From: Candidatus Hadarchaeota archaeon
Lineage (GTDB): Archaea; Hadarchaeota; Hadarchaeia; Hadarchaeales; Hadarchaeaceae
Direction of reading: 5' to 3'
DNA: 64,000 nucleotides
NCBI GenBank assembly: GCA_964514965.1
Contig: CAZETV010000001.1
Location: 889,239 to 953,238 of the forward strand
Of this stretch, positions 18,582 through 58,646 are shown one piece after another. Position 1 is the stretch's first letter. Each line of letters starts with the position of its first letter. A program made the translations under genes and the position numbers. Below the pieces are notes generated by a model, which made no database searches, was not told where the DNA came from, and saw nothing but the letters and a program-made list of their open reading frames with translations.

Positions 18582-18597
18582 AATGGCCCCATCTGGG

Positions 18598-18627: not shown

Positions 18628-18678
18628 GTCATAGATAACTTGAAAAACACTTGGCAACGAAGTTTGCAGGGAGTTGGC

Positions 18679-39116: not shown

Positions 39117-39118
39117 AA

Positions 39119-40959: not shown

Positions 40960-41030
40960 AGAATCCCAAGCGTAAATTTTTGGTCTGAATTTATAAATGC
41001 GAGAGTGCCAATAAATTTGGAGGTTTGGTC

Positions 41031-43004: not shown

Positions 43005-43877
43005 TCAATGAGTTAAAACGTGATCGATTATCTTTTTGGTTATACTTACTTTTGTCGTGGATTGGAGACCTTTCCACCCAGGAATGGCGTTGACCTCAGT
43101 AATGAAGAACTCGTCATCCCGTTCAACGATGTCCACCCCGGCGTACTCACATCTCAAGATTTCTGCCGACTTTATCGATGCTTCTTCTAGCTCTCCACGT
43201 AATTCACATGGCTCGACTCTCGCTCCCTTTGAAAAGTTAGTCTTCCAGCTTTCGCCGACTCTCTTCATTGCCGCTATAACTTCATCCCCGATAATGAAAG
43301 CCCTTATATCCTCGTTGCGATGAGGAATGAACTCTTGGACGTAATACACATACCTTCCAAATTCAAGGGCCGTAAAAACTCTATATGCTAGGTCCCGATC
43401 ACTCACTCGTACCATCCCCGCACCCAAAGAGCCGAAGAGGGGCTTGACTATCACGTCCTTGAACTCCTCGAAGGCCTTCATGGCATCGTCATGCTTTTCG
43501 GTAACGATAGTCTTGGGGGTCGGGATTCCCGCATCTTCCAACAAAGAGCACGTATAGAACTTATCCGCACATCGCTCTATGGCGATTGCAGGGTTCAGTA
43601 CCTTTACTCCCAAATTCTCCAGCCTGTGAAGCGTATCCATTCTGAATATCAGCTGTTCCGCTGATCCTTTCGGCACCCATCTGACAATTAATGAGTCGAA
43701 CTCATCAAGATCGTGACCACAACATGAGACGCGTGGCTTTCCGCTCAACTTTGCGACTAGGTAAGAAAGAGGAAAGGTAAAACAGCTGATTTTTCTGCTT
43801 TCTATTTCTTCCCTCAACTGCTCAACATTCCAGTCATTTTTACCTGAGGTAAAAATTCCGATTTTCTTCACACGCAT
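43005..43877 (-). CDS. mptN: RimK-like ATP-grasp glutamate ligase, probably tetrahydromethanopterin:alpha-L-glutamate ligase (MptN) or CofF-like
   Basis: 290 aa RimK-type ATP-grasp (VIVKPLFGSLGAGM, EVNAIPGWKG); last gene of the fwd-ftr-mch operon. Confidence 0.55.
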   Translation of the reverse strand: MRVKKIGIFTSGKNDWNVEQLREEIESRKISCFTFPLSYLVAKLSGKPRVSCCGHDLDEFDSLIVRWVPKGSAEQLIFRMDTLHRLENLGVKVLNPAIAIERCADKFYTCSLLEDAGIPTPKTIVTEKHDDAMKAFEEFKDVIVKPLFGSLGAGMVRVSDRDLAYRVFTALEFGRYVYYVQEFIPHRNEDIRAFIIGDEVIAAMKRVGESWKTNFSKGARVEPCELRGELEEASIKSAEILRCEYAGVDIVERDDEFFITEVNAIPGWKGLQSTTKVSITKKIIDHVLTH

Positions 43878-44809
43878 GCACCCAGTGATTTCGCCAGCAC
43901 TTCCTCGTCAATGCTTCCGGCATGAAAAACTCTTCCGGTCCTCAGGTTGTTTATCGTTACTTCGGCGGGGGAGAAAAGTTTTGGATCGATCTTGAAGAAG
44001 TCCCTATCATATTTTTCGAAGAGTTCAAGGAATGGCAGGCCGTAGTCCTTGGAGGCGCGTGAGGGAATTTCATCGATCACCTTCTCAACCTCAGAGTCGT
44101 CAGCATCCACGAAGTACATCGTCCTCCCACCGTAGAGCACACAGTCGTTGGTTTTCCCCATCGCTTCTAGATCGTTTTTGGTCACTGGCGCTACGGGAGC
44201 ACTTCCGCTCCCGCAGATTATCTCGCCTATATCGAACCCGACCTCATGTAGCTTGTGCACGCCGGTTTCCACAATTCTCGCTGATATCTGGATGCTCCCA
44301 ACAATGCTTGCAGTCGGGGCAGCCAAGATGTAGAGACTATCGGGCTTCACCTTGCATTTTTGGGCGATGAAATCCGCTACCTTTTCGTTTGGTATTTTTC
44401 TAGTCTCGAGCGTGATGACCGCTTTCTCACACCTATCTTCATATTTCAATTCTCGGAACAGCTTTTCCTCCACCCTCGCCAGCGCCCTCGCGGGACCCGA
44501 ACCCATCGCGAAGTAATCTTCAACTTTTATCGCCCACCCAGCAAATTGAGAAGCCATGCATGATATCGCGGGATGGTCCACGTTCACATGGACATAGGGC
44601 CTTTTCTCCATGCAAAGACTAACGCCGCCAAGACCCCCTAGACACGCCTCTGAAAAAAGTTTGCCAGCTTTAAGGCTCCCCTGCACCTTGATTCCAGAGT
44701 CGATCACTACTGCCCCATTTTTTAGTTTGAGGACTTTGACCCCCAGTTCTTCCTCACTTTGAGTCATCGCGTCTGCTATTTTTGAAGCTCTTTCGTTCAC
44801 GCTTATCAT
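43868..44809 (-). CDS. mch: Methenyl-tetrahydromethanopterin cyclohydrolase
   Basis: 313 aa with the Mch family N-terminus (ISVNERASKIADAM) and conserved core. Confidence 0.85.
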   Translation of the reverse strand: MISVNERASKIADAMTQSEEELGVKVLKLKNGAVVIDSGIKVQGSLKAGKLFSEACLGGLGGVSLCMEKRPYVHVNVDHPAISCMASQFAGWAIKVEDYFAMGSGPARALARVEEKLFRELKYEDRCEKAVITLETRKIPNEKVADFIAQKCKVKPDSLYILAAPTASIVGSIQISARIVETGVHKLHEVGFDIGEIICGSGSAPVAPVTKNDLEAMGKTNDCVLYGGRTMYFVDADDSEVEKVIDEIPSRASKDYGLPFLELFEKYDRDFFKIDPKLFSPAEVTINNLRTGRVFHAGSIDEEVLAKSLGACV

Positions 44810-45627
44810 GTCGCGCCTCCTTTCCAGATCAGTATCTCCCCCTTCCCTAGGGCGGCAATATCTCCGTTATACCTATCGTAGAAACCCTCGATGTGTTCTT
44901 TTTTGACAGGTAAATCATATTTTTCCAGTCTTTTTAGGAAGGCTCTGATGAAAGTCGGTTTGTAGGTGCAACTATATCTGAAGGTCGGCAGTAGCTTCGG
45001 GGGATTGAAGGCTATGATGGTTCCCCTATCCATCCCGGCTCCCGCTTTCTCCCCGATATCGCCGGAACAGACTATTGACCCACCTGTCATGAGTGCGCCG
45101 GTTAAGTTTCCTAGTTTGCCTTTGATGACGATTGCGCCCCTTCTCATCAGTTCTCCGACCTCGCGTCCGGCATCGCCTTCAATTATAATCATTCCGCCCT
45201 TCATTCCGACTTTAGAACCCCGGTAACCCGAACCAACGAGGTTTCGGGCGTTCCCTCTGACCCTTATCAGCCCCCCTTTCATCTCGGCCCCGAGCCAATC
45301 CCCAGCGTTTCCGTGAACGAGTATCTCTCCTCCTTGCATCTCCCGACCAAGGTGCATTCCAGCACTCCCCTCGATTACCAACTTGCCTTTGCTCATCCTT
45401 GCCCCAATATGCTTGACCGCGCTGACATCGCCAGTGATAACTATCTTCTCAGTTCCATCCGATTCCTGTTCGATATTGAAGATATCAGTCAATCTTTTCC
45501 TTCGGTTTCCCCACAAAAGCTCGAGACTTTTTAGCTCCGCCACAGACTTACCAGAAAATACATCGGGTGAGATGCATTCGGCCTCAACCGGCACCTTAAA
45601 TTTGACTTTAGGTTTGAGGATGATCAT
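44806..45627 (-). CDS. fwdC: Formylmethanofuran dehydrogenase subunit C
   Basis: 273 aa beta-helix protein with repeated G-x-x-G-x-x-M/L-x-x-G repeats (GNAGDWLGAEMKGG, GDAGREVGELMRRG). Confidence 0.8.
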   Translation of the reverse strand: MIILKPKVKFKVPVEAECISPDVFSGKSVAELKSLELLWGNRRKRLTDIFNIEQESDGTEKIVITGDVSAVKHIGARMSKGKLVIEGSAGMHLGREMQGGEILVHGNAGDWLGAEMKGGLIRVRGNARNLVGSGYRGSKVGMKGGMIIIEGDAGREVGELMRRGAIVIKGKLGNLTGALMTGGSIVCSGDIGEKAGAGMDRGTIIAFNPPKLLPTFRYSCTYKPTFIRAFLKRLEKYDLPVKKEHIEGFYDRYNGDIAALGKGEILIWKGGAT

Positions 45628-46520
45628 CGGTTGCCCTCGAAGAGTTTGTGGAGGTAGACCAAGTGTTTGCCCAGCTTGCCCCCATAGTTTCCGGCAGTTA
45701 TGAGCTTTATCCCGTCCACACTACAGGCTTCTTCGATTCCCGCCTTCGTGGCTTTTTTCACGCTTTCTCCGTCCAATCCGTTTATCACTATTTCTAGGAC
45801 GGAGTTGACATCCTGCGGTATCTTGCTTTCCACTACAGATCTCAGGGTCGGACAATATGCGGTATTCGTCGAAGCCCTTAGGAACTTGTACTTCGACCCG
45901 ACCTTGCTACCGCTCCTTACTACACCGCCGGGAAATGGAGTTATCACATTTTTGATTCCTTTTATAGCTTCGACTGCTTTCTCCGCGGCCTCAAGCACGC
46001 AGTCGGCATCTCTCCCCAAGATGAGGAAGTTACCTCCTCCCACGGCTTTTCGGACTTTGAACTTTTCCTCAACTAAAAATTCACCCTCCATGGCGGGGAT
46101 TCTCCAAAACCTCCTGCCGTCGATCCGCTTGGCAATTTGATAGCCGTCCCCGAAAAATCTCAACTTCCCACCAATGTTTATTTCCTTCTCCCCTTCCAAG
46201 TTGTTGAAACAGGCCGTTGTGGGACAAGTCATTATGCATTGACCAACCCTCCGCATGAGCTGGTCCTCGAGGGTCTTTTCGGACATGGCTAAAACTAGAA
46301 TGTTCGCCCCCGGTCTTCCATCTGGGGTTTCTTTGACTCTCACAAGATTCTCTATCCCAGCTTCAGCCCCGCACGCTATGACTGAAGTGGCAAATCCCGT
46401 GGTGGTGTTCGTAGCGTGCAAAGCCCATTTTTTGTTTTTCGCCGTTATCAACAAGCGTGCCGCTACCATATCGAAGGCTTCGGCAAATGTATCTTCTATT
46501 TCCACTCCGTTTATCTGCAT
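45624..46520 (-). CDS. ftr: Formylmethanofuran--tetrahydromethanopterin N-formyltransferase
   Basis: 298 aa with the Ftr N-terminus (MQINGVEIEDTFAEAFDMVAARLLITA) and length typical of Ftr. Confidence 0.9.
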   Translation of the reverse strand: MQINGVEIEDTFAEAFDMVAARLLITAKNKKWALHATNTTTGFATSVIACGAEAGIENLVRVKETPDGRPGANILVLAMSEKTLEDQLMRRVGQCIMTCPTTACFNNLEGEKEINIGGKLRFFGDGYQIAKRIDGRRFWRIPAMEGEFLVEEKFKVRKAVGGGNFLILGRDADCVLEAAEKAVEAIKGIKNVITPFPGGVVRSGSKVGSKYKFLRASTNTAYCPTLRSVVESKIPQDVNSVLEIVINGLDGESVKKATKAGIEEACSVDGIKLITAGNYGGKLGKHLVYLHKLFEGNR

Positions 46521-48118
46521 GGTATCATCTCTCCTCTGGGCAGGTACTCGTCCTGCACGGGGTAGTTTTCTAAGGCGACCGTATAGTACTTAGCGAAATC
46601 TTCCCTCATCTCATCGGTCACCTCGCCTCCAGCGTTTACCCAGTAAGTTCTCCCTTGGGGTGATTCAACTATTTTCCCATCCTTCAACACAATTTTCCCA
46701 TCCTTGATCACGTATTTAGCCCTCGAGAAAGAGCGTTTTATATCGTTCTCTTTGAACTCGTAAATTGCTACATCGGCATCGGCTCCCACACCTAGATGTC
46801 CTTTTTGCGTGAGTCCCAAGAGCTTGGCAGCGGCTGCCCTCGTTATTATGGCAATTTCGAACAGCGAATATTCCCTGTCTATCCCTCCGAGACCAGTTCT
46901 AGACGAAGCGGCGCGATGAACGGACTGAAGCATCTGATCGCGCGCCTGCTTGTTCATCAACCAAGAGATGACTTCTGGGTAGTGGTAGAATGGGCCCCCG
47001 TTGGGGTGATCGGTGGTCATGAAGAACTTCCACGGATCTTTAACTAGCAGAGCCATCTCCAACCCGATTGCCCACTGAACGGCATTGACGGGGCTCTTAG
47101 CTTTGTAAACATGCGGGACTATGCCAGCGCCCTCTTCCATCTCCACATCTGCATTGTACCACTTGTTCCCGGTCATCTTGTAAAGGCTGTGTTGCATTGG
47201 ACCGTCGGCCGTCATTGTGGTAGCGTCGTCGAATATGACTTGCCCCATATCACAAGTCACGTTTTCGCGCTGGTTTATCCGCTTCGCGAGCTCGGCTGCC
47301 CCCGAGGCTAATTTCGCCCAACTGTCCCCCGCGTAAGAGTTAAACTGGATGTGAGTGATGTGAATCCTTCCTTTGACTGCATTTATCGATTCTGCGGTCG
47401 TCTCGAAATTCCCGGGTGTCCCAAGGTTGTTGCAGTGAACGTGAATGGGGTGGGGGAGTTTCAACTCTTCGTTGACCTTCGCTAGACCAGTGAGTATCTC
47501 TCGGGGGGTTACTTCGTAATTATCGACCCTGTCATTGATGCTTTTTACGTTCCTGCCCCACTTCCAGTTTTCCACTCCACCTGGATTCACTATTTTTACG
47601 ACGCACCCCCTTGTCGCCTTTAAGAGCCATGCAACGAAGTTCTTGAGCTTTTCAAAGTCCTTCTCCTTGACGTACCTCAAGACGAAGTGGTTATTGCCCA
47701 TGAGTGTGTAACACCCCTTGTCCACGATTGGGATGTCGTTTAGCTCCTCGTGTGTGTGCCTCGCCCCTAGTGGAGGTACAGCAGCTTCCATCAGGGTCGT
47801 GTAACCAAGCTTCACGTACCTATACCCTGTCACAAACGTTGTGGGGACAGTGTATCCGACCCCGCCTCTCGTGATTTCTGTTTTCGAAACGGGGTCCTTT
47901 CTGTGGTCTTCAGGTCTGAACAACCTGCCGAGGTTAACCTTAGAACCAGCGATGTGGGTGTGGATCTCCACGCCTCCAGGTAGGACGATCAGCCCAGAGG
48001 CATCTATTTCCTTTCCATCAGCTTCCTCGACTATTTTCCCGTTTTTGATGAACAGATCTTTCTTTTCTCCGTTTATCCCGTTCAAGGGGTCGTAGATGGT
48101 GCCATTCTTGATAATCAA
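46511..48118 (-). CDS. fwdA: Formylmethanofuran dehydrogenase subunit A (amidohydrolase)
   Basis: 535 aa amidohydrolase fold with metal-binding HxH (GGVEIHTHIAG) and downstream His/Asp ligands. Confidence 0.85.
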   Translation of the reverse strand: MIIKNGTIYDPLNGINGEKKDLFIKNGKIVEEADGKEIDASGLIVLPGGVEIHTHIAGSKVNLGRLFRPEDHRKDPVSKTEITRGGVGYTVPTTFVTGYRYVKLGYTTLMEAAVPPLGARHTHEELNDIPIVDKGCYTLMGNNHFVLRYVKEKDFEKLKNFVAWLLKATRGCVVKIVNPGGVENWKWGRNVKSINDRVDNYEVTPREILTGLAKVNEELKLPHPIHVHCNNLGTPGNFETTAESINAVKGRIHITHIQFNSYAGDSWAKLASGAAELAKRINQRENVTCDMGQVIFDDATTMTADGPMQHSLYKMTGNKWYNADVEMEEGAGIVPHVYKAKSPVNAVQWAIGLEMALLVKDPWKFFMTTDHPNGGPFYHYPEVISWLMNKQARDQMLQSVHRAASSRTGLGGIDREYSLFEIAIITRAAAAKLLGLTQKGHLGVGADADVAIYEFKENDIKRSFSRAKYVIKDGKIVLKDGKIVESPQGRTYWVNAGGEVTDEMREDFAKYYTVALENYPVQDEYLPRGEMIPCR

Positions 48119-49386
48119 GCTTTCACCTTCTCAATAATTCTTTTCAAAATTTCTCTATCGGGTAAGAACTCCGAATCGATTACTTTTTTGAGCCTTAGGG
48201 GGATTCCGTCCATTCTGTAGGCAGTTCCATCGCACTCTATCCCAGCTATCGCTGAGGGAATTACAATCCTGGCAATTAAGGAAGTAAGGCTGATTTTTGG
48301 ATCGATAACGATTGTTGGGATCGTAGTCAAATGCTTGGAAGCTTGGGCGGGGAAATGCGCAACGGGGTCGGAGGCTATTATGAGAGCGGCATCACATTCT
48401 CCACGAGCCAAGATATCCACAGCAGAAAATTCACCTGGATTGTAAACCGGATAACCTTTGGAGAAATTGACCGCATAAGGGTAGCCAGTGCACCAAGTCA
48501 TCACATCGTTGGCACCAGACACGTTATAGTGGCCCCTCATCGGGATTATGGCGAATTTGGTGTGGTCATTCAAATCCCTGACGAGGCGGAGAGCCGCGTC
48601 GACGTTCATGTGCTTTCCCCCAGTCATCGTAAGACCTAGGCCGAAGAATATCACCCCAAATTTGCAACTCTTCATTTTCTCCGCAAGTTGTTTGATGGTT
48701 TCAGAAGGTACCCCTGCAACATCCCCCACATCATATCCCTTGACCACAGCTCTGAATGCCGAAAGCAACTCGTAGTCTTGGCCGGGCTTAACTTTTACAA
48801 AAAGATTGGCCATCTTCGAGGTCTTCGTTTCTCTCACATCAATGTGCACTATCTCCCGACCTTTCTTTCCACTTTCTGTGTAGAGGCCTCTAGGGGTTAT
48901 CGAGTATCGCGTTGCGTGCTTGATATGGGCCTCCGCTGGGTTACACCCCCAGAAAATCACCAAATCGGCCCTGTTTTTGACTTCCCCTAGTGTACATTTT
49001 GCAGCTCCACAATCTTGGGCTGCTTGAATGGTTGGTCCGTGGCAGACGGAGCTCGTGTTATCAATGGATGCTCCAGTCAATTCGGCGAGCTCGACAGCCA
49101 GTCTCTGGGCGTCGGTTTCGGTAGAGCTCAGGCCGTATATCAATGGAAAATCGGCTTTCTTCAAAATCTCCGCTGTTTTCTCCAAAGTTCTTTCTATTGA
49201 CACTTCAACGAGTTTCCTTTTTTTCTTTATTTGAGGTTTAGCTCTGTCTTTAGCGTGGTTCAGAAATTTACTTTTGGAGAATGCGCAAGCATTTTTAACA
49301 TCGACTACCCTTCCATCTTCCGTTACAACTTCTATATCATCACAAAGACATCCACAAAGAGGACACACGATATTTTTGTAATTCAT
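48115..49386 (-). CDS. fwdB: Formylmethanofuran dehydrogenase subunit B (molybdo/tungstopterin catalytic subunit, Cys-type)
   Basis: N-terminal 4Fe-4S motif CPLCGCLCDD; catalytic Cys-His dipeptide in SSVCHGP (Cys, no in-frame TGA), so not a selenoprotein. Confidence 0.85.
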   Translation of the reverse strand: MNYKNIVCPLCGCLCDDIEVVTEDGRVVDVKNACAFSKSKFLNHAKDRAKPQIKKKRKLVEVSIERTLEKTAEILKKADFPLIYGLSSTETDAQRLAVELAELTGASIDNTSSVCHGPTIQAAQDCGAAKCTLGEVKNRADLVIFWGCNPAEAHIKHATRYSITPRGLYTESGKKGREIVHIDVRETKTSKMANLFVKVKPGQDYELLSAFRAVVKGYDVGDVAGVPSETIKQLAEKMKSCKFGVIFFGLGLTMTGGKHMNVDAALRLVRDLNDHTKFAIIPMRGHYNVSGANDVMTWCTGYPYAVNFSKGYPVYNPGEFSAVDILARGECDAALIIASDPVAHFPAQASKHLTTIPTIVIDPKISLTSLIARIVIPSAIAGIECDGTAYRMDGIPLRLKKVIDSEFLPDREILKRIIEKVKA

Positions 49387-49772
49387 TTAATCCCTTTTAT
49401 TTGTGTTATGGCATTTACTATTTTCAATATATCTTTGTCCGTCGCTAAAATCTCCGCTTCAACGCCTTTAGAATCTGGCATCCCGGTTCCTTGAGTATCC
49501 GCGCTTATCACCATATTTGCCCAAGGCCCGTAGGGCATGAAAGCGATTCCGTGGTCTATTCTCGACTCTTTACACCTAACGACGGTTGAACCGAATTTGG
49601 TGCTAACTTCTACATTTTCACCCTCTTTAGCACCGATTTCTTTCATATCGTTTTCATTCATCATGACCATGGCGACATTTTTAGAATATTCCTCAGAAGT
49701 TTTGCTAATTTCTAGACTTGTCCCCTGTTCTACCGTCCTTCCACTGATTAAAATCACTTTCATGTGATTCAT
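49383..49772 (-). CDS. fwdD: Formylmethanofuran dehydrogenase subunit D
   Basis: 129 aa molybdopterin-dinucleotide-binding-domain-like small subunit, first gene of the operon. Confidence 0.75.
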   Translation of the reverse strand: MNHMKVILISGRTVEQGTSLEISKTSEEYSKNVAMVMMNENDMKEIGAKEGENVEVSTKFGSTVVRCKESRIDHGIAFMPYGPWANMVISADTQGTGMPDSKGVEAEILATDKDILKIVNAITQIKGIK

Positions 49773-49876: not shown

Positions 49877-50941
49877 ATGAAACATACGCAAACTTGTAGC
49901 GACGATGGAAAGGTAAAGTTGATGAATATACCATATGGGGAACTTAAAACGACCGTGGTCGGGAGCTTTCCCTTACAGCACTCTATAGAAAACATGCGTA
50001 GGACATTTTCAGATCAGATCGAAGCTGGGATAAATTTCCCATGTTATGGGCAACTTTTGGATATGAATTTAATGTTTCTAGAACCTTTGGCAAAAGAAAA
50101 ATGTGGAATCGATATAATTGCGGGGGAGGCGTGGATCACCGGTTTATTAGAGGTTCCTAAGAGGCCCATATCTCTCGAGTTCTTGGAACTAGCTCAAGAG
50201 TACCTCAAAAAGAACCCCTCCGAAGAGGTTGACGGGATTAAAGTCCCCATCACAGGCCCAATCACCTTATCATCCGCGACGAAGGTTTCTGAAAAACATC
50301 TTGCTATAGAACACCCAGATTTTATTCTAGATTTTTCCAATATCGTGGCTGAAATCGCGAAATGGTACGACAAAGCAGGGGCGGGGCTGATAATGATTGA
50401 TGAGCCTTCTTTGAGTTATGCCAAATGGTTTGGGACGGAGCCCGATGTTCTAATCGAAGCGATTAATAAACCCATGAAAGCGATAAAGAACGCCCTATCT
50501 TCGGTTCACGTATGTGGTGACATTTCCGCGGTCACGGACATCCTCATCCAATCGGAAGCTCCAATATTAGATCACAGCTTCAGTGACTTTCCAGCCAACT
50601 TAGGATTTTATTCCAGAGGCGTTTTAGAGAGAGCCGATAAGATGATAGGGTTTGGCTGTGTGAGTTCAACACCAGACCCACAGCTTCTGTTAGACATCAG
50701 CGCGGGAAAGGCTCAATGGACGGAAGCGGTAGAATCCGTGGATAAAATAGAAAAGTTGATTCTTGAGGGAGGGAAGAGGTTCGGACTTGAGAGATTAATT
50801 ATAGACCCAGATTGCGGGTTTGGCGGGATGAGAGAATATTTTAAAGACGACACTGGGCAGAGGATAGCAACTGGAAAGCTGAGAAATATGGTCGGGGCTG
50901 TAAGGGGTGCTAGGAAAAAATTGGGAATGCCCCATAGTTAG
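49877..50941 (+). CDS. metE: Cobalamin-independent methionine synthase (MetE C-terminal domain) family protein
   Basis: VVGSFP motif, IMIDEP, and zinc-ligand contexts HVCGD and DPDCGFG characteristic of the MetE catalytic domain; archaeal short form. Confidence 0.6.
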   Translation: MKHTQTCSDDGKVKLMNIPYGELKTTVVGSFPLQHSIENMRRTFSDQIEAGINFPCYGQLLDMNLMFLEPLAKEKCGIDIIAGEAWITGLLEVPKRPISLEFLELAQEYLKKNPSEEVDGIKVPITGPITLSSATKVSEKHLAIEHPDFILDFSNIVAEIAKWYDKAGAGLIMIDEPSLSYAKWFGTEPDVLIEAINKPMKAIKNALSSVHVCGDISAVTDILIQSEAPILDHSFSDFPANLGFYSRGVLERADKMIGFGCVSSTPDPQLLLDISAGKAQWTEAVESVDKIEKLILEGGKRFGLERLIIDPDCGFGGMREYFKDDTGQRIATGKLRNMVGAVRGARKKLGMPHS

Positions 50942-50968
50942 TGATTATTTTCAGATGAGTGTGATATT

Positions 50969-51922
50969 TTGAGAATTCACATCAAAACACCATCGCGGTT
51001 GCATTTTGGGATAATCGATCTCAGCAGAAGCTTAGGCCGCAGCTATGGTTCAATGGGTTTAGCGATAGAGGGGCGTGGGTATGAAATCCTTGCCGAGAAA
51101 GGCGAGGAGCTAGAGGTACTTGGGCCGGGGGAGGATGCAGAGCAAGCAAGAAAGATTGCCGAAAAAGTTACGCAAATTTACAAAATTCCACGTCAGGTCA
51201 AAATAAACATACTTGAGAACATCCCGATGCATGTAGGGCTGGGCTCCACGACCCAACTGACGCTGGCGGTGGCAACGGCTATCACGAAACTTTATGGTGT
51301 GAAGGCTTCATCCGTTGAGCTTGCGGAGAAAATGGGCAGGGGGAAAAATTCTGGTGTGGGGGCCTACGCTTTCATGAAGGGGGGTTTCATTGTTGGTGGA
51401 GGGATTAAGAGAAGAGGATTTCCGCCGATGATTTTCAGACACGATTTTCCTGAAGAATGGCGCTTCGTAATCGTTATACCGCAAATTGGGAGGGGACTCG
51501 ATGAAAAAACTGAAGAGGGGCTGTTCAAGCGAATAACAGCTTCTACTGATGTTGCCCGAAGAATTTGCCACTCACTCGTCATGAAAATGCTGCCCTCTAT
51601 TGTGGAACATGACGTAGAGAGTTTTGGACAGGTTTTGACTGAGGTTCAGAGGCTCGTTGGGGAAGCTTTTTCCCCCTACCAAGGAGGCGTGTTCGGGGGT
51701 CAGATAGTTTCTGATATCGTTAATCGGATGCTGGAGGAGGGGGCATATGGTGCTGGGCAGAGTTCTTGGGGTCCGACGGTTTATGGGTTGGTTGAGGATA
51801 ATGCCCAAGCGGAGGAACTAAAAGAAAAAATTTTGGAGTTCTTAAAGGGTAAAAGTTACAAAGCTGGCTTAATGGTGGTCAGACCAAACAATGAAGGAGC
51901 TAAGGTAGAAATCGAGGACTAA
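50969..51922 (+). CDS. mptG: Beta-ribofuranosylaminobenzene 5'-phosphate synthase (GHMP-kinase fold), methanopterin biosynthesis
   Basis: N-terminus PSRLHFGIIDL and GHMP motif (PMHVGLGSTTQL) typical of beta-RFAP synthase. Confidence 0.7.
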   Translation: MRIHIKTPSRLHFGIIDLSRSLGRSYGSMGLAIEGRGYEILAEKGEELEVLGPGEDAEQARKIAEKVTQIYKIPRQVKINILENIPMHVGLGSTTQLTLAVATAITKLYGVKASSVELAEKMGRGKNSGVGAYAFMKGGFIVGGGIKRRGFPPMIFRHDFPEEWRFVIVIPQIGRGLDEKTEEGLFKRITASTDVARRICHSLVMKMLPSIVEHDVESFGQVLTEVQRLVGEAFSPYQGGVFGGQIVSDIVNRMLEEGAYGAGQSSWGPTVYGLVEDNAQAEELKEKILEFLKGKSYKAGLMVVRPNNEGAKVEIED

Positions 51923-53063
51923 ATGGGATTTTCTCTTCCAACTTTTGTTTCACGCTTTTTCCTTTTGGATGATAAATATGGTCCAATGCTGTACCTTTTG
52001 AATTTTTGATGCCCATCCACTCGATGAGCTTGGCAAATTTGCTCCTTGTCAAACCATCAGCGACCATTGCGTACCCTTGAGCCGATTCTTTGACCCTTCT
52101 CGCCCCCTGAAGCCACCCGATTCTCCTCACTGGCGCGAATTTGGCGAGTCTCTCTAGCAGTTCATCCTTAACTCTTTCGATTCTCGTTAATCTACCTGAA
52201 AGCAGGATTTCTTTGGGATGGGGAACCGTGACCATCATTGAAGCGACGCCCTTTACTATATCCTCGATCATTGTCTCCCACGCCACTTCGCAGTGCTTAT
52301 CAGAATTTGCGCATCCAATCAGCTCTTCAGGGGAAAGCTTGCCAGACACGGAAATTCCACCACCCGTGAAAATATCCATTTTTTCCCATTTCCCGACTAG
52401 CTGTGTGAGTTCCGCGTCCATGCCGCCTGAAGTTAGAAATCCGATTCCCCCCATAGTTCCGCCGATTCCATCGACAATTTTTCCTTCGCTTATGCCAAGA
52501 ACTGCGTTATACCCAAAGCCCATCTCAACGAGGATGAAGGAGACCTCGGAGTATGGAATGTTTAGCTTTTGGGCCTGATCGTAAACTCCGAGGACGCCAA
52601 TGCACATCTTGTCGACTGTCCCCATGTCAAGCTTGTTGATTTTTCTGTGCGCGGGCACTGTGGGAAGCTCAATCACGCCTGGGATGTAACAAACCGGCCA
52701 ACCCCTGCGCTTCATTTCCATTGCTGTTTCGGTCATAGCTGAATAGACCATTATTCCGATGTCACCTTTTGTTAAAGCGGCCTCCAAGTCCTCTTTCTTC
52801 AGGAGGAGTATGTAGGTAAGGTACCAGTCCCTAAGGGTCTGGATGTTCAAATCTCTCAGATACGTTAATTCAACGCCGTATCCAGAGGGACCAGCTATCA
52901 AATCTAGCGGCATCGCTTTTTCGGTAGCTTCGATTAACAGCTTTGGGTTTTTGGCAACCTCAGGAGTTTCTAAAATTTCCTCAAAGTACACTTCTCCATT
53001 TTCCAGCCCGCATAAATCAAAACTCTTTGTACCGGGGTCTATACCCAAAACCCTGACTTTCAT
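51900..53063 (-). CDS. ASKHA-superfamily protein (DUF1464-like), unknown function
   Basis: N-terminal phosphate-1 motif (VLGIDPGTKSFD) of the actin/sugar-kinase fold; last gene of the H4MPT biosynthesis operon. Confidence 0.4.
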   Translation of the reverse strand: MKVRVLGIDPGTKSFDLCGLENGEVYFEEILETPEVAKNPKLLIEATEKAMPLDLIAGPSGYGVELTYLRDLNIQTLRDWYLTYILLLKKEDLEAALTKGDIGIMVYSAMTETAMEMKRRGWPVCYIPGVIELPTVPAHRKINKLDMGTVDKMCIGVLGVYDQAQKLNIPYSEVSFILVEMGFGYNAVLGISEGKIVDGIGGTMGGIGFLTSGGMDAELTQLVGKWEKMDIFTGGGISVSGKLSPEELIGCANSDKHCEVAWETMIEDIVKGVASMMVTVPHPKEILLSGRLTRIERVKDELLERLAKFAPVRRIGWLQGARRVKESAQGYAMVADGLTRSKFAKLIEWMGIKNSKGTALDHIYHPKGKSVKQKLEEKIPFSPRFLP

Positions 53064-53110
53064 CGATTCATCCTTCCGTGAGGTCTATTCCATTTTCCAT
53101 TGTGTGCGAT

Positions 53111-54676
53111 TTAGAAAAGCTCTTTCTCCTGCAGATAGCTCCTGCCAGTTCTCAGAGCAATCTCGGCTTTCTGGAGTTCGCGCCCCAAGTATGCGGCATG
53201 TTCGATATCACTAATCAATCCTTTTTCTATAATTTCATAGCATATCTCCTCGGCGGTTTTCCCTCTTATCACGATTTTTGGGTCCCTTCCAGCGTACATG
53301 ACGGCGACTATCTCATATTTGTCAACGAAAATTTTGAAGAAACCTGTTTGATCGAGCTTAAACTTTCTCTTTGCCGATGCGTGGATTGCACTTGCTACCT
53401 TCTCGACATTTTTATCGTATAGGTCGAAAACCTTTCTCTTTTCCTTTAGGATTAGCAGGTCCAATCCTAAATCCTTGGGGACGGTGGACCTTATCTTCGA
53501 TATCGTCGTCATCTCCCTCGCCTTTCTGACCTCTGCAACATTTCCCTGCGTTTTATCGCTCGCTTCCACGGTGAGCACGAAACTTGTCCCTAGTTCGCTT
53601 GCGGCTCCAACTAACAAAGCTGTCATACCCACTGAATCTGCATCGTAAAGCTCAACCACGTTTCCTATCCCCATCAAGATCGGAAGTTCGGGATCAAGTC
53701 CCCTCAACTCGTAAAAGGACAACAGGGAGGCAACGAATCCACGGTTAACGGGTTCTAGGATGGGGTCGGCTATCACCCGTTTGTATCCGAGTTTCTCCGA
53801 TTTTTTCACCAGTTTCATCAAATACTCTACCTTTTCTCTTGGTGCACGCGGGTAATAGCCGCGCTTCGTGTTTAATGGAACGAGGACAGCGGGCACTTCA
53901 AGATTTTGAAATTCATTGATGGTGGCGCCGTTTATGCTCAGGATCAAATCAATTTCGCACTCGATGGCCTTTTTGATCTCAGTTTTGTTTAAAGTGTCAA
54001 TGCTTATCGGGACATCGAAATTATCTTTTAGTGTGGACACAAGCCTCGGAACTTCATCGACCATCTCCCTTCCCGCGAGCATTCCGATATCGATGATTTC
54101 AGCTCCGCTTTCGAAGTATCGTTTGGCGACTTCAATGATTTTCTCGTCAGAAAAGAGTGGCGCATCAGCTATTTCTCCGATGACCCTCGGCGGAAAATCT
54201 CTGCCAGCGGGAACCGCCGTCTTGCCCTTCCCAATCAAGAAATTGTGAGGTTCAGAAAGCCTTTTTTTAGCAGCTTCCTCGGCGATTTTAAGTTGTTTTT
54301 TTATAGAGGCTTTAATCTCAGAGTTTAGGAGCTCGCATGCTGGTTTCTCTTTCGAAAGCTCTATTTTATCTAAATTGTCCAGCACAATGGGGATGTCTGC
54401 AGCGTACTTTGGCCCCTTAAAAGTGGGTATCCCAAGTTTATTTTCTATCATCTTCAAGTCAAATCTAACTAGCCCTGGAACGAGGAGCATCGAGAAGTTG
54501 TTCAAGTTGATTTTTTTTAATTCATTTATCAAAAGTTCTGGAGTCATGAATGATGCAACGGAGAGTGGCAGGACTTTTACATCAGAAGGTATAGTGCTTT
54601 CGACGGCATACCTTCGAACTAACTTTTCAGCGAGTTCAGCCGTTACCAGCAGTATTCTCTTGCCCATCGGCACCAC
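53111..54676 (-). CDS. Dihydropteroate-synthase-like protein with C-terminal extension (methanopterin biosynthesis)
   Basis: 521 aa; pterin-binding TIM-barrel segments (EIIDIGMLAG, ISIDT) resembling the DHPS homologues that condense dihydropterin-PP with beta-RFAP in methanogens. Confidence 0.6.
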   Translation of the reverse strand: MVPMGKRILLVTAELAEKLVRRYAVESTIPSDVKVLPLSVASFMTPELLINELKKINLNNFSMLLVPGLVRFDLKMIENKLGIPTFKGPKYAADIPIVLDNLDKIELSKEKPACELLNSEIKASIKKQLKIAEEAAKKRLSEPHNFLIGKGKTAVPAGRDFPPRVIGEIADAPLFSDEKIIEVAKRYFESGAEIIDIGMLAGREMVDEVPRLVSTLKDNFDVPISIDTLNKTEIKKAIECEIDLILSINGATINEFQNLEVPAVLVPLNTKRGYYPRAPREKVEYLMKLVKKSEKLGYKRVIADPILEPVNRGFVASLLSFYELRGLDPELPILMGIGNVVELYDADSVGMTALLVGAASELGTSFVLTVEASDKTQGNVAEVRKAREMTTISKIRSTVPKDLGLDLLILKEKRKVFDLYDKNVEKVASAIHASAKRKFKLDQTGFFKIFVDKYEIVAVMYAGRDPKIVIRGKTAEEICYEIIEKGLISDIEHAAYLGRELQKAEIALRTGRSYLQEKELF

Positions 54677-55414
54677 TTAGAGAACTTCATTTAGAGTTTT
54701 TGGAATTTTTTTCGGACTATCGATTACAACATAGTTTTTATTTTTCTGCATTTTCTTGACATTTTCGATATCAATTTTTCTGAGAGTAACTTTGACTTCT
54801 TGGCCGAAGGTAACCGCGCCATAAGGGCACTTTTTGAGGCAAATGCCGCACCCTTCACACTTGGTGAGGTCTATTTTTGAATGTCCGTCAGAGAGAACTA
54901 TCGCTTCAAATAGGCAAAGGTCGATTATCGAACAAGCTTCGCAATTCAGACAAATTTCTCGGTTTATCAGGTACGGAAGTCTCGTTCTTTTCTTAATCCC
55001 AATTTGATCGCTCGGAACAATTATTATCGGTACTTTTCCCTTCTCGGCCTGTGCTATGGCGTTTGTAACTAAGGTGTCGGTGATTCCAGCAATAGTTTTT
55101 GCAACCGTGTTTGCACTCGCCGGTGAAATGATCAGAGCATCGTAGGTTCCTCTTAATAAACGTCCTGCAAGCGGGAAGTCGGGGCCCTGCTGGACTTCAA
55201 GGATCACTTCTCGGTAATAATTACCCGGGCAAATCTTGCTCAGTTTTTGCCAAAGCCCATAAACGCGAACGACCCTTTCTCCAGCTGAGGAAACGAAGCA
55301 TGATACCACATGCTCTCTCGCTAATTTCTCCATAACGTCGAATGTCTCTTGAAGAAAATGTCCGGCTCCTGTTATGCCCCACCCTATTTTTACCAATTCA
55401 CTACCCCATCTCAT
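54677..55414 (-). CDS. dmrX: Flavoprotein with two 4Fe-4S ferredoxin motifs, DmrX-like dihydromethanopterin reductase
   Basis: N-terminal flavoprotein fold (IGWGITGAGH, IISPASANT) plus C-terminal CLNCEAC...CEGCGICLKKCP motifs. Confidence 0.55.
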   Translation of the reverse strand: MRWGSELVKIGWGITGAGHFLQETFDVMEKLAREHVVSCFVSSAGERVVRVYGLWQKLSKICPGNYYREVILEVQQGPDFPLAGRLLRGTYDALIISPASANTVAKTIAGITDTLVTNAIAQAEKGKVPIIIVPSDQIGIKKRTRLPYLINREICLNCEACSIIDLCLFEAIVLSDGHSKIDLTKCEGCGICLKKCPYGAVTFGQEVKVTLRKIDIENVKKMQKNKNYVVIDSPKKIPKTLNEVL

Positions 55415-56087
55415 TTTTGAAGAGACCCTTAATTTTTATCATCAGGTTTAGCTCCACTGAGTGAGGAGCGATTCGCCGACATTTTTCCAAATATTCACTA
55501 ATCTCAAGGAATTTCTTTTTTGCCACGTCATATTTACCATTTTTTAACGCTTCCTTTACCCGAGTTGCCAGTATTGCGGATTCGGTCACGAAGAACTCGG
55601 ACCTTTTGAACGGATAGATGGACGGAGTAATTAACTCAATATTTTTCACCCTTGCAGTAATGTGGGCCACTTCCGAACTGCCGATCTCATCCGAAATCTT
55701 TGCTCGTTCTACCTTTTCAACCTCAATCTCCACATGGGCATCGCTTTTCGCCAGTTTGGGCGCGTTCACGTTTCTCGATTTTTCGAATTCTATTGCGATT
55801 TTACCGAAGCTGGTGAATTCTTTTAGAGCAAGAGATACCAGGAGTTCCACATCTCTTACGATGTTTATAACCGCGGCCTTCGAATGGAGGAGATTCTGGA
55901 AAGTTCTGGTGTTAGTGAAAATTCTTAGAAACAACTTTGATTGATTTATTGTCTTGATACCAACAACCGATGCGTGCGGTCTTTTATCAGGTGAGAAGGT
56001 AGTCAAAATGATTTCCGCTGGGGATTGCTCAGATAGCCCAGTTTCTGCTAATGAGGACATAACAGGCATCTTCATTTCAACATGCAT
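55401..56087 (-). CDS. DUF447-like protein associated with methanopterin biosynthesis
   Basis: 228 aa protein between dmrX-like and CitG-like genes; the same gene set (DUF447 plus CitG-like) accompanies H4MPT biosynthesis in methylotrophs. Confidence 0.45.
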   Translation of the reverse strand: MHVEMKMPVMSSLAETGLSEQSPAEIILTTFSPDKRPHASVVGIKTINQSKLFLRIFTNTRTFQNLLHSKAAVINIVRDVELLVSLALKEFTSFGKIAIEFEKSRNVNAPKLAKSDAHVEIEVEKVERAKISDEIGSSEVAHITARVKNIELITPSIYPFKRSEFFVTESAILATRVKEALKNGKYDVAKKKFLEISEYLEKCRRIAPHSVELNLMIKIKGLFKNEMG

Positions 56088-56120
56088 ATGTTTTTCTCAC
56101 ACATAAAACTCTCAAAGATT

Positions 56121-57104
56121 TCAAGGTATCAACCCATCGAGGATTGCCAGCATTAGGGAGGATGCGGTGAGGTCAGCCGTTGTTCCTGGATTTATTCTTT
56201 TTTTTCTCAGCTCCTCATCAAATTTTTTGATAAGGGTTCTCCCCGCACTTGTTAACATTCCTCCTTTCTTGATGATCGACCTTGCCTCCCCCGATACGTT
56301 TTCCGAGATTTCTTTGCCGTGTATCCTTTGCACGAAGGTATCGGGATATTTTGAGAGTATCTCGAGAAAGCTCTGGACGGTCGTCGTGTTCATGGTTTTA
56401 GTCTTTTCGTACAATTTTTTCACGAGTGGATAGCCGAATTCAAAAGTTATCTCCATGCCGGTGACCCATTCTCTGGATATGTTATCCCACTTTGAGCTGA
56501 TATTCATTATCTCATAGAGCGAGATATGCTCTTTCTTTATCCTATCCTTTGATGTCTCATTCTTTACATCGAGTTCATCCACTCCCTCAAGGCCTGCCGG
56601 GTCCGCAATCAAGATCGCATCGTAGACATTCAGCGCGTCCTCAGGAGTCGTGGATTTCAAGACATTTGAGAGGTTTGCCCTAAGCTTTTTCATTTCAATT
56701 TTACCTTCCCTGCCCAGCGTTATTCCTGCTGCTGCTGCAAGCGGTGTTAAGAGCAGCACTACGCCCAGATTTGTGTTTCCGTCTCTTTGCCATTTCATCG
56801 TGTTTTCAATTGCACTTTTTATTGCTCTTCCAACTCCGATATGAGTCGTTTTGACCCCTCTCTTTCCAACCCTGAACCCTCTCTTGGCCACATCGAGCAA
56901 AATGGGGCCTATCGCTATGGAGCTTGCTATGAAATGCTCAAACGTCATTTCCTTTATATCCGCAGTTCTGTGAACATTTCCCGGCTTTGGGTACCCGCTA
57001 ACCTCTAGCGCTGACGCGAGTTGTGCGGCTCTTGCTATATCTTCGATATCCATCAAGATTACCTGCGCGGCCTTGCTTATTTTTCGTGTTGTATCATTTA
57101 ACAA
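56121..57104 (-). CDS. Triphosphoribosyl-dephospho-CoA synthase (CitG)-like protein, methanopterin biosynthesis associated
   Basis: CitG-family motif GYPKPGNVHR and 327 aa length. Confidence 0.6.
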   Translation of the reverse strand: MLNDTTRKISKAAQVILMDIEDIARAAQLASALEVSGYPKPGNVHRTADIKEMTFEHFIASSIAIGPILLDVAKRGFRVGKRGVKTTHIGVGRAIKSAIENTMKWQRDGNTNLGVVLLLTPLAAAAGITLGREGKIEMKKLRANLSNVLKSTTPEDALNVYDAILIADPAGLEGVDELDVKNETSKDRIKKEHISLYEIMNISSKWDNISREWVTGMEITFEFGYPLVKKLYEKTKTMNTTTVQSFLEILSKYPDTFVQRIHGKEISENVSGEARSIIKKGGMLTSAGRTLIKKFDEELRKKRINPGTTADLTASSLMLAILDGLIP

Positions 57105-57107
57105 CGT

Positions 57108-57578
57108 TTATGAGAGATGTTTGAGGTTACCAGACTTGGCTCGTTTTTTCTTCACGAGTTTTCCGAGCCCACGTTTTTGGAGCATCGCTTCGATCTCTCG
57201 CTCGGACGGTTGCGGGAGTAAGGTAGGAGCAGGGGTTCGGGACAGTTTCATCCTGAACGCTCCAATTATTTTGCTTGCAGCGAGCGTATACGCAAGCACT
57301 ACCGCGCAGAAGTAGAGCGGTTCAAGCGCGAGCGCCATGGATGTGAAGATTGCGGGTCCGACGATTGCGACCCCGACCGCTAGGGCAATCACGATCGTTT
57401 TGACCTTTCGACGGCGATAAATTACCGTGAGCTTGCCGCCCAGACCTAAGAGCAGCGCCTCCAGCCCAAAAGCCAAAGAACCGAAGAGGAGAATTATATA
57501 GAGGATTTCGATGGTGCTCAAGCAGGTCACCAATCGAGCTAGGTTGACAAACGATTTAAAATGTGAGCGGCGCCGCAT
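57108..57578 (-). CDS. Small membrane protein (start uncertain)
   Basis: Hydrophobic helices (ILYIILLFGSLAFGLEALLLGL, IVIALAVGVAIVGPAIF); longest ORF overlaps the nth start, so the true start is probably internal (TTG at 57521 or ATG at 57338). Confidence 0.35.
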   Translation of the reverse strand: MRRRSHFKSFVNLARLVTCLSTIEILYIILLFGSLAFGLEALLLGLGGKLTVIYRRRKVKTIVIALAVGVAIVGPAIFTSMALALEPLYFCAVVLAYTLAASKIIGAFRMKLSRTPAPTLLPQPSEREIEAMLQKRGLGKLVKKKRAKSGNLKHLS

Positions 57579-58292: not shown

Positions 58293-58646
58293 TCATCTTT
58301 CTTCAGATTCGATTACATAGTATCTATCTAGCAACTCACAGACGGCTTTAGAAAGAGCATGATAGCACATGTCGGCATCAACTTTTTCTGTGGAGATGCT
58401 AAGAACGTAGTCTCTACAGGTGCAGAAAGTGCGGAAAACTTCATACTCGTCTGATTTCCCCCGCACGAACCATCGCCTACCCCGCCTTATAACGCAATGG
58501 TGCTTGATGGCCTCTAAAGCACGCTTCCCTCGTCCGCTGTAGGCGTCAATTATCGCTCGCTCAAGTTGCGGAGTCAAAATTTCGCCTCGCTTGAGCTGCT
58601 TGAACAGTTCATTCTTTTTGCGGAGGAAAGTTTCCGAGACCACCAC
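58293..58646 (-). CDS. Hypothetical Cys/His-containing small protein (SWIM-zinc-finger-like)
   Basis: 117 aa with CTCRDY...CYH pattern; no firm family assignment. Confidence 0.35.
   Translation of the reverse strand: MVVSETFLRKKNELFKQLKRGEILTPQLERAIIDAYSGRGKRALEAIKHHCVIRRGRRWFVRGKSDEYEVFRTFCTCRDYVLSISTEKVDADMCYHALSKAVCELLDRYYVIESEER

Follow-up and report, generated by a model that had tools for sequence, protein, structure and literature searches.

A probable tetrahydromethanopterin biosynthesis operon closing a one-carbon gene island in Hadarchaeota, and candidate roles for its uncharacterised members

The 64-kb stretch of Candidatus Hadarchaeota DNA studied here (contig CAZETV010000001.1; hereafter the window) contains the beta-RFAP synthase gene mptG opposite a minus-strand operon of six genes, and we conclude that this region is probably a conserved archaeal operon for biosynthesis of tetrahydromethanopterin (H4MPT) that closes a Wood–Ljungdahl, or one-carbon (C1), island in Hadarchaeota. 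Methanogenesis, anaerobic methane oxidation, the archaeal Wood–Ljungdahl pathway and bacterial methylotrophy all use H4MPT as a carrier of one-carbon units, and to our knowledge several steps of its synthesis have been without an assigned enzyme since the pathway was outlined biochemically in the 1990s. Loci of this kind are already known: the 'archaeal-like' islands of bacteria are examples, and the pterin-binding protein and DmrX have curated NCBIfam models. The present one is a new, compact Hadarchaeota example; what is newly found here is the fold of the DUF1464 protein and its adjacency to mptG, the missing loop 2 of dihydropteroate synthase (DHPS) in the pterin-binding protein, and an uncatalogued family of proteins with a nucleotidyltransferase core and an OB fold (NTase-OB). 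We propose, as a tentative scheme that is rather unlikely to hold in every part, that a CitG-like enzyme with ATP as donor and NTase-OB would together complete the attachment of ribose phosphate and hydroxyglutarate, and that DUF1464 would activate a phenol. The window gathers most of the candidate genes within a few kb, in a lineage that has retained their linkage, and its value is as a guide to assigning the last H4MPT steps.

We checked the coordinates of the eight open reading frames (ORFs) around mptG and scored them with Pfam and NCBIfam profiles against curated cutoffs (Table 1). All eight were found where the original prediction had placed them, with mptG opposite the six named minus-strand genes, and the family assignments that it had made from raw sequence all hold against the profiles. 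The six genes are separated by 3, 33, -14, 0 and 47 bp, in keeping with the predicted tight operon organisation (gaps and overlaps between -14 and 47 bp); DUF1464 is the last gene of the operon and overlaps the 3' end of mptG convergently by 23 bp, and the MetE-like gene lies 27 bp upstream of mptG. Three proteins have later starts in the gene calls of the source contig, namely the membrane protein (137 aa), the CitG-like protein (310 aa) and the pterin-binding protein (518 aa); the membrane-protein gene has internal GTG/TTG starts preceded at about 30 nt by a TTTAAA box, which is consistent with the shorter, 137-aa call. Rfam gave no matches within the window at gathering thresholds, a scan of the region found no tRNA genes, and composition across it has no island-like break. 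A residue-for-residue identical copy of DmrX is present on a Logan contig of run SRR14802574, and 100%-identical copies of the DUF1464 and NTase-OB proteins are on record from one NCBI contig; the closest loci are in Hadesarchaea/Hadarchaeota metagenome-assembled genomes, with 84% identity for the pterin-binding protein. The prediction had also described several of these families as lacking assigned reactions, and a 2021 paper still lists several genes of the bacterial 'archaeal-like' cluster as of unknown function (PMC8141765).

The genes of the operon stay together in other genomes. We collected 80 genome loci that surround pterin-binding protein homologues, mapped the window proteins onto them and, for the 45 loci with at least 4 kb of sequence on both sides, counted which genes lie no more than 10 kb from the pterin-binding gene. 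The most constant neighbour is DUF447 (29 of 45), followed by mptG (24/45), the CitG-like gene (11/45), DUF1464 (9/45) and dmrX (8/45), compared with 3–4 of 45, all in close Hadarchaeota relatives, for the housekeeping controls nth, ksgA and EF-2; since the loci are phylogenetically non-independent, these counts express persistence through rearrangement and not probability. Spacing is often close, with mptG no more than 300 bp from the pterin-binding gene in 26 loci and from DUF447 in 25, and dmrX directly beside the pterin-binding gene in 10. Hadarchaeota and Bathyarchaeia show strong linkage, as do single Scotarchaeum, Thermoprotei and Hydrothermarchaeota loci, and further contigs from Promethearchaeota and Altiarchaeota show it too. 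The genes for the pterin-binding protein, DUF447, DmrX/AfpA, MptG, the CitG-like protein and DUF1464 are thus linked across several archaeal phyla. The prediction, which named lack of conserved linkage as the result that would count against it, is upheld here, with linkage to H4MPT genes kept in Hadarchaeota, Bathyarchaeia, Promethearchaeota, Altiarchaeota and further lineages and in part in Proteobacteria. Among the same loci, one titled Bacteroidaceae bacterium (L077) has a pterin-binding gene whose length and identity profile match the Methanobrevibacter copies, which suggests a mis-binned contig, and four titled Thermococcus sp. or Thermococci (L059, L061, L066 and L078) also carry the gene.

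The CitG-like protein covers 284 of 284 positions of the Pfam CitG profile, matches PDB entry 3H9P at E 7e-24, and aligns over its full length with E. coli CitG at 24% identity (E 3e-9), the two having in common an N-terminal PKPG and a C-terminal PG(G/T)(S/T)ADL motif. It scores only 63–70 bits against the CitG/MdcB equivalog models TIGR03125, TIGR03132 and NF002315 (cutoffs 272–282), and no citDEF, citX or mdc genes were found among the 61 annotated ORFs of the window or in related loci. The association with H4MPT that the prediction had claimed for this gene, with a true citrate lyase CitG beside citDEF as the finding that would speak against it, therefore stands: the 64-kb window holds no citrate-lyase or malonate-decarboxylase genes, and the equivalog scores are low. 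Archaeal copies of the gene are linked to H4MPT genes and bacterial copies to mch-RimK-...-fae, and gene order equates the gene with bacterial orf7. An alternative equation of the CitG-like gene with orf21 and of the membrane-protein gene with orf22 was rejected, as Orf21 is MfnE and Orf22 is MfnB, with Orf9 being MfnF (PMC8141765). A full-text literature search for CitG, DUF447 or a nucleotidyltransferase together with methanopterin, the coverage of which does not include two key 2005 J. Bacteriol. papers on the islands, returned nothing relevant.

The NTase-OB gene lies elsewhere in the window, immediately downstream of mtd (Table 1), and its product matches no Pfam or NCBIfam family above cutoff. 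Both the fold and the signature of Pol-beta nucleotidyltransferases, G-[GS]-x(9-13)-[DE]-x-[DE], are present, the latter as G-x-x-G-S...S-D-x-D with G136, G139, S140, S150, D151 and D153 invariant in 53 sequences, although Pfam NTP_transf_2 is above cutoff in only one member of the family. The core resembles terminal uridylyl and poly(A) polymerases, and the C-terminal OB fold resembles SSB, MCM and the anticodon-binding domains of aminoacyl-tRNA synthetases; a family profile search of the sequences of solved structures gave no meaningful match. The family comprises 1,480 representatives at 50% identity, with members from Bathyarchaeia, Promethearchaeota and Wukongarchaeota, and was not found on proteobacterial H4MPT plasmids.

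We also anchored 80 metagenome loci on the NTase-OB family alone; among the 44 whose flanks reach at least 4 kb, 37 have a CitG-like gene within 5 kb of NTase-OB, the pair usually being divergent with one multi-pass membrane gene between them. At least two NTase-OB paralogues are present in 37 of the 44 loci; they fall into three groups of orthologues that have all kept the motifs intact, and the window has only the group that adjoins CitG. Most of the Bathyarchaeia-like loci (L097–L176, for example L105 at 7998-11117, L124 and L135) have three conserved paralogues in a constant layout, one forward and two reverse, adjoining a CitG-like gene and a 5–7-helix ECF-S-like membrane gene. In three phyla the gene sits inside H4MPT operons, and the arrangements vary: a Hadarchaeota contig has the order CitG, mch, PTPS, MptA, DUF447, pterin-binding gene, NTase-OB, mptG, DUF1464 and mer; Promethearchaeota have DUF1464, flavoprotein, pterin-binding gene, MptA and NTase-OB in one cluster; and another contig has RimK and then two NTase-OB genes beside ftr, mtd, fwd and mch. 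On a bacterial-type contig (GCA_964441405.1; L093, 5626-7143) a 505-aa protein fuses a canonical HPPK domain to NTase-OB, and is followed by bacterial-type afpA and orf19.

CitG (EC 2.4.2.52) forms an alpha-linked ribosyl 5-triphosphate from ATP, and methanopterin holds a 5-phospho-alpha-D-ribofuranosyl-(1->5)-ribitol unit. We propose that the CitG-like enzyme would transfer a 5-triphospho-alpha-D-ribosyl group from ATP, with release of adenine, to the 5-OH of the ribitol in the methanopterin precursor, yielding the alpha linkage found in methanopterin, and that NTase-OB would then join the alpha-phosphate to the 2-OH of (S)-2-hydroxyglutarate with release of pyrophosphate. The scheme draws on the alpha linkage, on the co-localisation of the two genes, and on proteobacterial islands that have the CitG-like gene and lack a nucleotidyltransferase; bacterial dephospho-H4MPT (dH4MPT) keeps the ribose and has neither the phosphate nor the hydroxyglutarate (PMC8141765). 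By analogy with CitG chemistry, we think it on balance probable that the CitG-like enzyme takes the alpha-ribosyl unit from ATP and attaches it, and we regard formation of the phosphodiester to (S)-2-hydroxyglutarate by NTase-OB as possible and considerably more doubtful.

The pterin-binding protein has three domains: DUF6513, a Pterin_bind TIM barrel and PterinBD-DUF4346. It scores 33.1 bits against the DHPS equivalog TIGR01496 (cutoff 162.6), and its family profile matches DHPS and the corrinoid methyltransferase MeTr about equally (47.9 and 42.5 bits). In the profile alignment to DHPS 1TWS the loop-2 motif GGESTRPG falls in a gap, whereas the alignment to MeTr is longer and covers the DPxxxP and G-x-(S/G)-N-V motifs; with loop 2 missing and MeTr-like DPxxxP and G-x-G-N-V motifs present, we take the protein to be a pterin-binding barrel and not an orthodox DHPS. 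Its C-terminal domain also occurs in long MtrA variants. The gene's neighbours on the pterin branch are folB in bacteria, MptA and PTPS in archaea, and the HPPK fusion on one contig. In our proposal the protein would couple activated 6-hydroxymethyl-dihydropterin to the aryl-riboside, a DHPS-like reaction with an active-site loop unlike that of DHPS. This condensing role is the best single guess, because folB and HPPK make the DHPS substrate, and we put its likelihood a little short of even.

DmrX has a flavoprotein domain (PF02441, residues 9-137) followed by two 4Fe-4S motifs with cysteines C155/158/161/167 and C186/189/192/196. DmrX and the related AfpA/DmrB are dihydromethanopterin reductases that perform the last H4MPT step (PMC6193120), and at family level the window protein is predicted to reduce dihydromethanopterin (H2MPT) to H4MPT. 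A profile of the DUF447 family finds four structural-genomics entries, 2PTF, 2IML, 2NR4 and 3B5M (E 1e-18 to 1e-24), and gives weak matches to the FMN binders 1EJE and 3IN6. Flavin_Reduct is hit weakly by one homologue, and a single-sequence search of solved structures with the window protein gave no match. From its sequence the protein is a flavin-reductase-like split barrel and a homologue of bacterial orf20. Opening of the ribofuranosyl ring to ribitol is a step without an assigned enzyme that fits such a fold, and DUF447 could be the flavin mononucleotide-dependent reductase responsible, an assignment that we consider plausible and would not yet favour.

MptG is above the family cutoff of TIGR00144 and below that of the equivalog NF040726 (221.6 bits against 328), with N- and C-terminal GHMP kinase domains present; this marks it as a divergent member, the name of which is safe at family level only. 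At that level it is predicted to make the aryl-C-riboside, the first committed step of the aryl-ribosyl branch, from pABA or 4-hydroxybenzoate and phosphoribosyl pyrophosphate with release of CO2 and pyrophosphate. D17 and R24, read from the sequence and not from a formal alignment, are apparent counterparts of an N-terminal acidic/basic stretch studied in beta-RFAP synthase (PMC6787355). Several Bathyarchaeia loci carry a second, divergent MptG-like GHMP-family paralogue, with 32–33% identity to the window MptG, located between mptG and DUF1464 (L011 12746-13729, L019 12734-13717, L025 and L046).

The neighbouring DUF1464 protein gives an AlphaFold2 model with a mean confidence score (pLDDT) of 92 and, compared with acetate and butyrate kinases, has their fold and is an ASKHA protein; the DxGT, GGT and SGR motifs for phosphate and adenosine are invariant, and a conserved cysteine cluster is absent. 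A profile search of PDB sequences recovered no kinase and no meaningful match. Identity across phyla is unusually high (56–67%), and the gene is immediately beside mptG in 12 of 15 occurrences, with an mptG->DUF1464 pair also on an Altiarchaeota contig; within our sampling it is archaeal only, with no matches among 72,556 plasmids. The modelled fold and this position would fit an acetate-kinase-like enzyme that transfers phosphate from ATP to an acidic oxygen at the MptG step, which we put forward as a doubtful assignment. A candidate role would be activation of the phenolic oxygen in a phenol-to-aniline route to the arylamine (White 2011, as cited in PMC8141765); pabB is 'commonly associated' with H4MPT genes in methylotrophs (PMC3615186), and bacteria with pabB would not need DUF1464. 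In one locus (L095, 6001-9234) DUF1464 is apart from mptG and beside genes for shikimate dehydrogenase and chorismate mutase/prephenate dehydrogenase, neighbours that may reflect a link to the aromatic precursor.

Several considerations weigh against this set of assignments. All of them rest on fold, motifs and neighbourhood, and the loci that provide the neighbourhoods are phylogenetically non-independent and mostly Bathyarchaeia. Eight Methanobacteriales and three Thermococci-labelled loci have the pterin-binding gene without these neighbours. The pterin-binding barrel resembles methyltransferase-type binders as much as it does DHPS, and in M. jannaschii a different protein, MJ0301, has reportedly been assigned the DHPS-type step. 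White's cell-extract work reportedly traced the second ribose to phosphoribosyl pyrophosphate and not to ATP, which was required for adding hydroxyglutarate. The OB fold of NTase-OB is of a kind typically found in proteins that bind nucleic acids, and the model offers no reason why Bathyarchaeia have three conserved paralogues with intact motifs. Homology of NTase-OB to CitX was considered and rejected, with an hhalign probability of 0.1 against E. coli CitX, so that the proposed partner has no sequence relationship to the enzyme whose chemistry it would parallel. The fusion to HPPK and the adjacency to MptA could just as well reflect a pterin-side function.

This last point leads to an alternative in which NTase-OB belongs to the pterin branch or acts together with the pterin-binding protein, where it may nucleotidylate or otherwise activate a hydroxymethyl-dihydropterin intermediate, and other enzymes finish the tail. 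The bacterial contig on which it is fused to canonical HPPK and followed by afpA and orf19 agrees with such a role, as does its position directly downstream of MptA in Promethearchaeota and of the pterin-binding gene in Hadarchaeota; its commonest neighbour, however, is the CitG-like gene (the 37 of 44 loci above), which has no obvious pterin-side role, and HPPK already supplies activated pterin, which would make a second activation redundant, so that we consider a pterin-branch function unlikely. Less likely again is that NTase-OB is an RNA or tRNA nucleotidyltransferase or another nucleic-acid enzyme that has kept its proximity to C1 genes by inheritance of a neighbourhood in a few lineages. 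The resemblance of its two domains to nucleic-acid enzymes and binders (terminal uridylyl and poly(A) polymerases for the core; SSB, MCM and aminoacyl-tRNA synthetases for the OB fold), the several paralogues per genome in Bathyarchaeia and the distance of about 13 kb from the CitG-like gene in the window would all suit this explanation, but the linkages to H4MPT genes differ among Hadarchaeota, Bathyarchaeia, Promethearchaeota and a bacterium and include the HPPK fusion, and a linkage that is rearranged yet persistent is hard to credit to inheritance alone. For the CitG-like and NTase-OB genes taken together, one could also imagine that they synthesise a phosphoribosyl-linked prosthetic group and fix it to a C1-pathway protein, such as a subunit of formylmethanofuran dehydrogenase/formyltransferase, much as CitG and CitX do for the acyl-carrier protein of citrate lyase. 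In its favour, the fold and motifs of CitG are retained, Bathyarchaeia usually have the module directly beside fwdDBAC-mch, bacteria have the CitG-like gene near mch, myfB and fae, and methylofuran is already known to be bound tightly to the bacterial Fhc complex as a prosthetic group (PMC6926001). The operon shows no small acyl-carrier-like protein, though, and bacteria keep the CitG-like gene without the nucleotidyltransferase. Methanofuran and methylofuran moreover contain no ribose, whereas methanopterin has the alpha-ribosyl unit that CitG chemistry gives, and we judge the prosthetic-group explanation highly improbable.

The 'DHPS-like' protein has its own alternative, that of a non-synthase pterin-binding or methyl-handling module that presents H2MPT or H4MPT intermediates to DmrX/AfpA or DUF447, or that takes part in C-methylation of the pterin. 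The longer MeTr alignment with its DPxxxP and G-x-S-N-V motifs, the missing DHPS loop 2, the C-terminal domain found also in long MtrA variants, and the flavoprotein genes that almost always flank the gene all argue for it. Yet the bacterial neighbours folB and HPPK are makers of the DHPS substrate, and the bacterial islands L082–L084 and L093 show no other candidate for the condensing step; a non-synthase module is consequently a serious alternative that we think rather unlikely, and we retain condensation as the proposed function.

If the assignments hold, reactions would be assigned to most of the H4MPT pathway genes still listed as 'unknown', the pathway would be complete, and it would offer better metagenome markers of H4MPT capacity and new targets for inhibition of methanogens; the chemistry of CitG and CitX would also be seen re-used on a small molecule with a non-homologous second enzyme. 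The comparison of loci itself narrows each gene lacking a function to a specific, assayable reaction, separates H4MPT from methanofuran genes, and brings to light one gene family for which current protein-family libraries have no entry.

The two remaining genes of the region appear to lie outside the pathway. The MetE-like protein is above the Pfam Meth_synt_2 cutoff of 21 and below all NCBIfam methionine-synthase cutoffs (best NF002119, 135 bits against 258), with H211-x-C213 and D-P-D-C313-G motifs present by eye; a single-sequence search of solved structures found no relative at E <= 0.1. It is probably a Zn-dependent thiol (homocysteine) methyltransferase and not a cofactor-biosynthesis enzyme, most likely of the methionine-synthase type and drawing on methyl groups that the pathway supplies. 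The predicted shared regulon of this gene and mptG stands in part: the adjacency is real, but homologues are adjacent only in Hadarchaeota (L002–L004 at 67–84% identity and a distant one in L006 at 24%), and the idea therefore draws on local adjacency alone. The small membrane protein (about 137–156 aa, the first gene of the operon) has about three predicted helices and a basic tail and matches no Pfam or NCBIfam family. Homologues occur only in the Hadarchaeota loci L002, L003 and L012, in the last of which one again adjoins an NTase-OB gene and DUF447; it has no similarity to the ECF-S-like proteins beside Bathyarchaeia CitG-like genes (E 0.15 or worse), and most other lineages have no membrane ORF at the equivalent position. 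It is probably a lineage-specific addition.

Table 1. Positions of the operon, the surrounding C1 island and other features in the 64-kb window.
Feature	Position	Strand	Length	Profile matches and remarks
MetE-like protein	49877-50941	+	354 aa	Meth_synt_2, 42.6 bits
MptG family	50969-51922	+	317 aa	TIGR00144, 199.2 bits (cutoff 113.5)
DUF1464 protein	51900-53063	-	387 aa	Pfam DUF1464, 290 bits
Pterin-binding 'DHPS-like' protein	53111-54676	-	521 aa	TIGR00284, 381 bits (cutoff 256.65)
DmrX	54677-55414	-	245 aa	TIGR02700 dihydromethanopterin reductase, 284.4 bits (cutoff 251.35)
DUF447 protein	55401-56087	-	228 aa	DUF447_N, 58 bits
CitG-like protein	56121-57104	-	327 aa	Pfam CitG (PF01874), 266.6 bits
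Small membrane protein	57108-57578	-	156 aa	No family; about 3 hydrophobic helices by hydropathy
NTase-OB	41861-42967	+	368 aa	Likely start 41939 (342 aa); 3 bp downstream of mtd
C1 island (about 38 kb)	19714-57578
Acetyl-CoA synthetase, RACo, CODH/ACS subunits, CooC	19.7-31.9 kb
FdhD, MobA, ATP-grasp protein, HisA/HisF-related, MfnE, MfnF, MfnD-like, MfnB, MfnA	33-41 kb
Methanofuran block: HisA/HisF-related (orf17), MfnE (orf21), MfnF (orf9), MfnD-like, MfnB (orf22), MfnA	35609-40959	-		NCBIfam TIGR00734, MfnE, TIGR03123/MfnF, MfnD; Pfam 4HFCP_synth, Pyridoxal_deC
HisA/HisF-related TIM-barrel gene	35609-36334	-		TIGR00734; directly upstream of mfnE
mtd	41025-41858	+		Pfam MTD
RimK/MptN-like ligase	43005-43877	-		Pfam RimK; MptN_Meth, 293 bits (below cutoff 350)
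mch, fwdC, ftr, fwdA, fwdB, fwdD in order	43868-49772	-		Pfam MCH, GXGXG, FTR, Amidohydro_3, Molydop_binding
HycI domain fused to cyclic-nucleotide-binding domain	10731-11669	-
NikR-type regulator	18226-19083	+	285 aa
ORF without family match	30707-30997	-	96 aa
ORF without family match	31953-32681	-	242 aa
ORF without family match	58293-58646	-	117 aa

We annotated 61 of the window's 67 ORFs, and the operon forms the end of a C1 island that holds CODH/ACS, RACo, CooC, Fwd, Ftr, Mch and Mtd together with genes for both special cofactors, so that nearly the whole archaeal Wood–Ljungdahl apparatus is present in one stretch; no mer gene was seen within the window. In the methanofuran block the MfnD-like protein is an ATP-grasp protein. 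The HisA/HisF-related gene at the edge of this block was considered as the ribofuranosyl ring opener and rejected, as an orf17 mutant still makes methenyl-dH4MPT and has no methylofuran (PMC8141765) and the gene adjoins mfn genes; phenotype and adjacency place it with the methanofuran genes, as a candidate for methanofuran biosynthesis. Elsewhere in the window, a HycI hydrogenase maturation protease domain is fused to a cyclic-nucleotide-binding domain, an unusual combination, in a gene that adjoins an operon for a group-3-type NiFe hydrogenase, and a NikR-type regulator has its ribbon-helix-helix and nickel-binding domains only at residues 158-284, preceded by an N-terminal extension of about 150 aa without domain assignment. 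Three ORFs have no family match, and those of 96 and 242 aa sit between the CODH/ACS and cofactor-gene blocks.

Comparison with the H4MPT gene sets of methylotrophic bacteria shows that part of the set recurs in bacterial islands. Homologues of the pterin-binding protein, with 25–27% identity over the full length, are encoded on 36 plasmids and chromids (Azospirillum, Paraburkholderia, Phyllobacterium and others), in the arrangements folB-flavoprotein-DUF6513 protein-DUF447, mtdB-ATP-grasp-mch-RimK-CitG-fae and fhcB-A-D-C, and with a hydantoinase-type MfnF next to a HisA/HisF-related gene. These agree with the islands of Methylosinus, which have the orders orf19-orf20-afpA-orf21-orf22 and mch-orf5-orf7-fae-orf17 (PMC3615186), and in which Orf5 corresponds to MyfB, a methylofuran glutamate ligase as is OrfY (MyfA) (PMC8141765). 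The window and the methylotroph islands have in common the pterin-binding protein (orf19), DUF447 (orf20), an AfpA/DmrX-type flavoprotein, the CitG-like protein and MptG, as well as a RimK-type ligase, the HisA/HisF-related protein and MfnB/E/F, partly with the same adjacencies, and the fwdB-fwdA-ftr-fwdC order of the window is that of bacterial fhcB-A-D-C. They differ in that the bacterial pterin-binding protein is shorter (about 440–465 aa compared with 521 aa), the bacterial flavoprotein lacks the ferredoxin domain (175–199 aa compared with 245 aa), the bacterial plasmids have no DUF1464 and the proteobacterial H4MPT plasmids no NTase-OB; bacteria make dephospho-H4MPT, the form produced by M. 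extorquens, to which the proteobacterial islands examined are related.

The individual proteins stand at varying distances from their characterised relatives. DmrX is an ordinary member of the DmrX and AfpA/DmrB group, above the TIGR02700 cutoff and with no notable difference. The pterin-binding protein has in common with FolP and with the MeTr/MetH modules a pterin-binding TIM barrel in which S-I-D-T and D-P motifs align with both, and differs from them in its extra N-terminal DUF6513 and C-terminal DUF4346 domains. DUF1464 has the fold of acetate and butyrate kinases at only 12–16% sequence identity, scores 15 bits with the butyrate kinase model TIGR02707 (cutoff 289), and is found without the phosphotransacetylase or phosphotransbutyrylase context of those enzymes, mptG being its constant neighbour.

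The closest parallel in chemical logic is with CitG/CitX and MdcB/MdcG, in which, as in our proposal, transfer of a triphosphoribosyl group from ATP is followed by formation of a phosphodiester with loss of pyrophosphate. The window CitG-like protein belongs to the CitG/MdcB superfamily and is not an orthologue, its equivalog scores being about one quarter of the cutoffs, and unlike the single citCDEFXG operon of E. coli its gene has no citDEF, citX or mdc nearby. The partner proposed here, unlike CitX, combines a Pol-beta-type nucleotidyltransferase core with an OB fold, and the acceptors would differ as well: the small-molecule ribitol in place of dephospho-coenzyme A for the first transfer, and hydroxyglutarate in place of a protein serine for the last.

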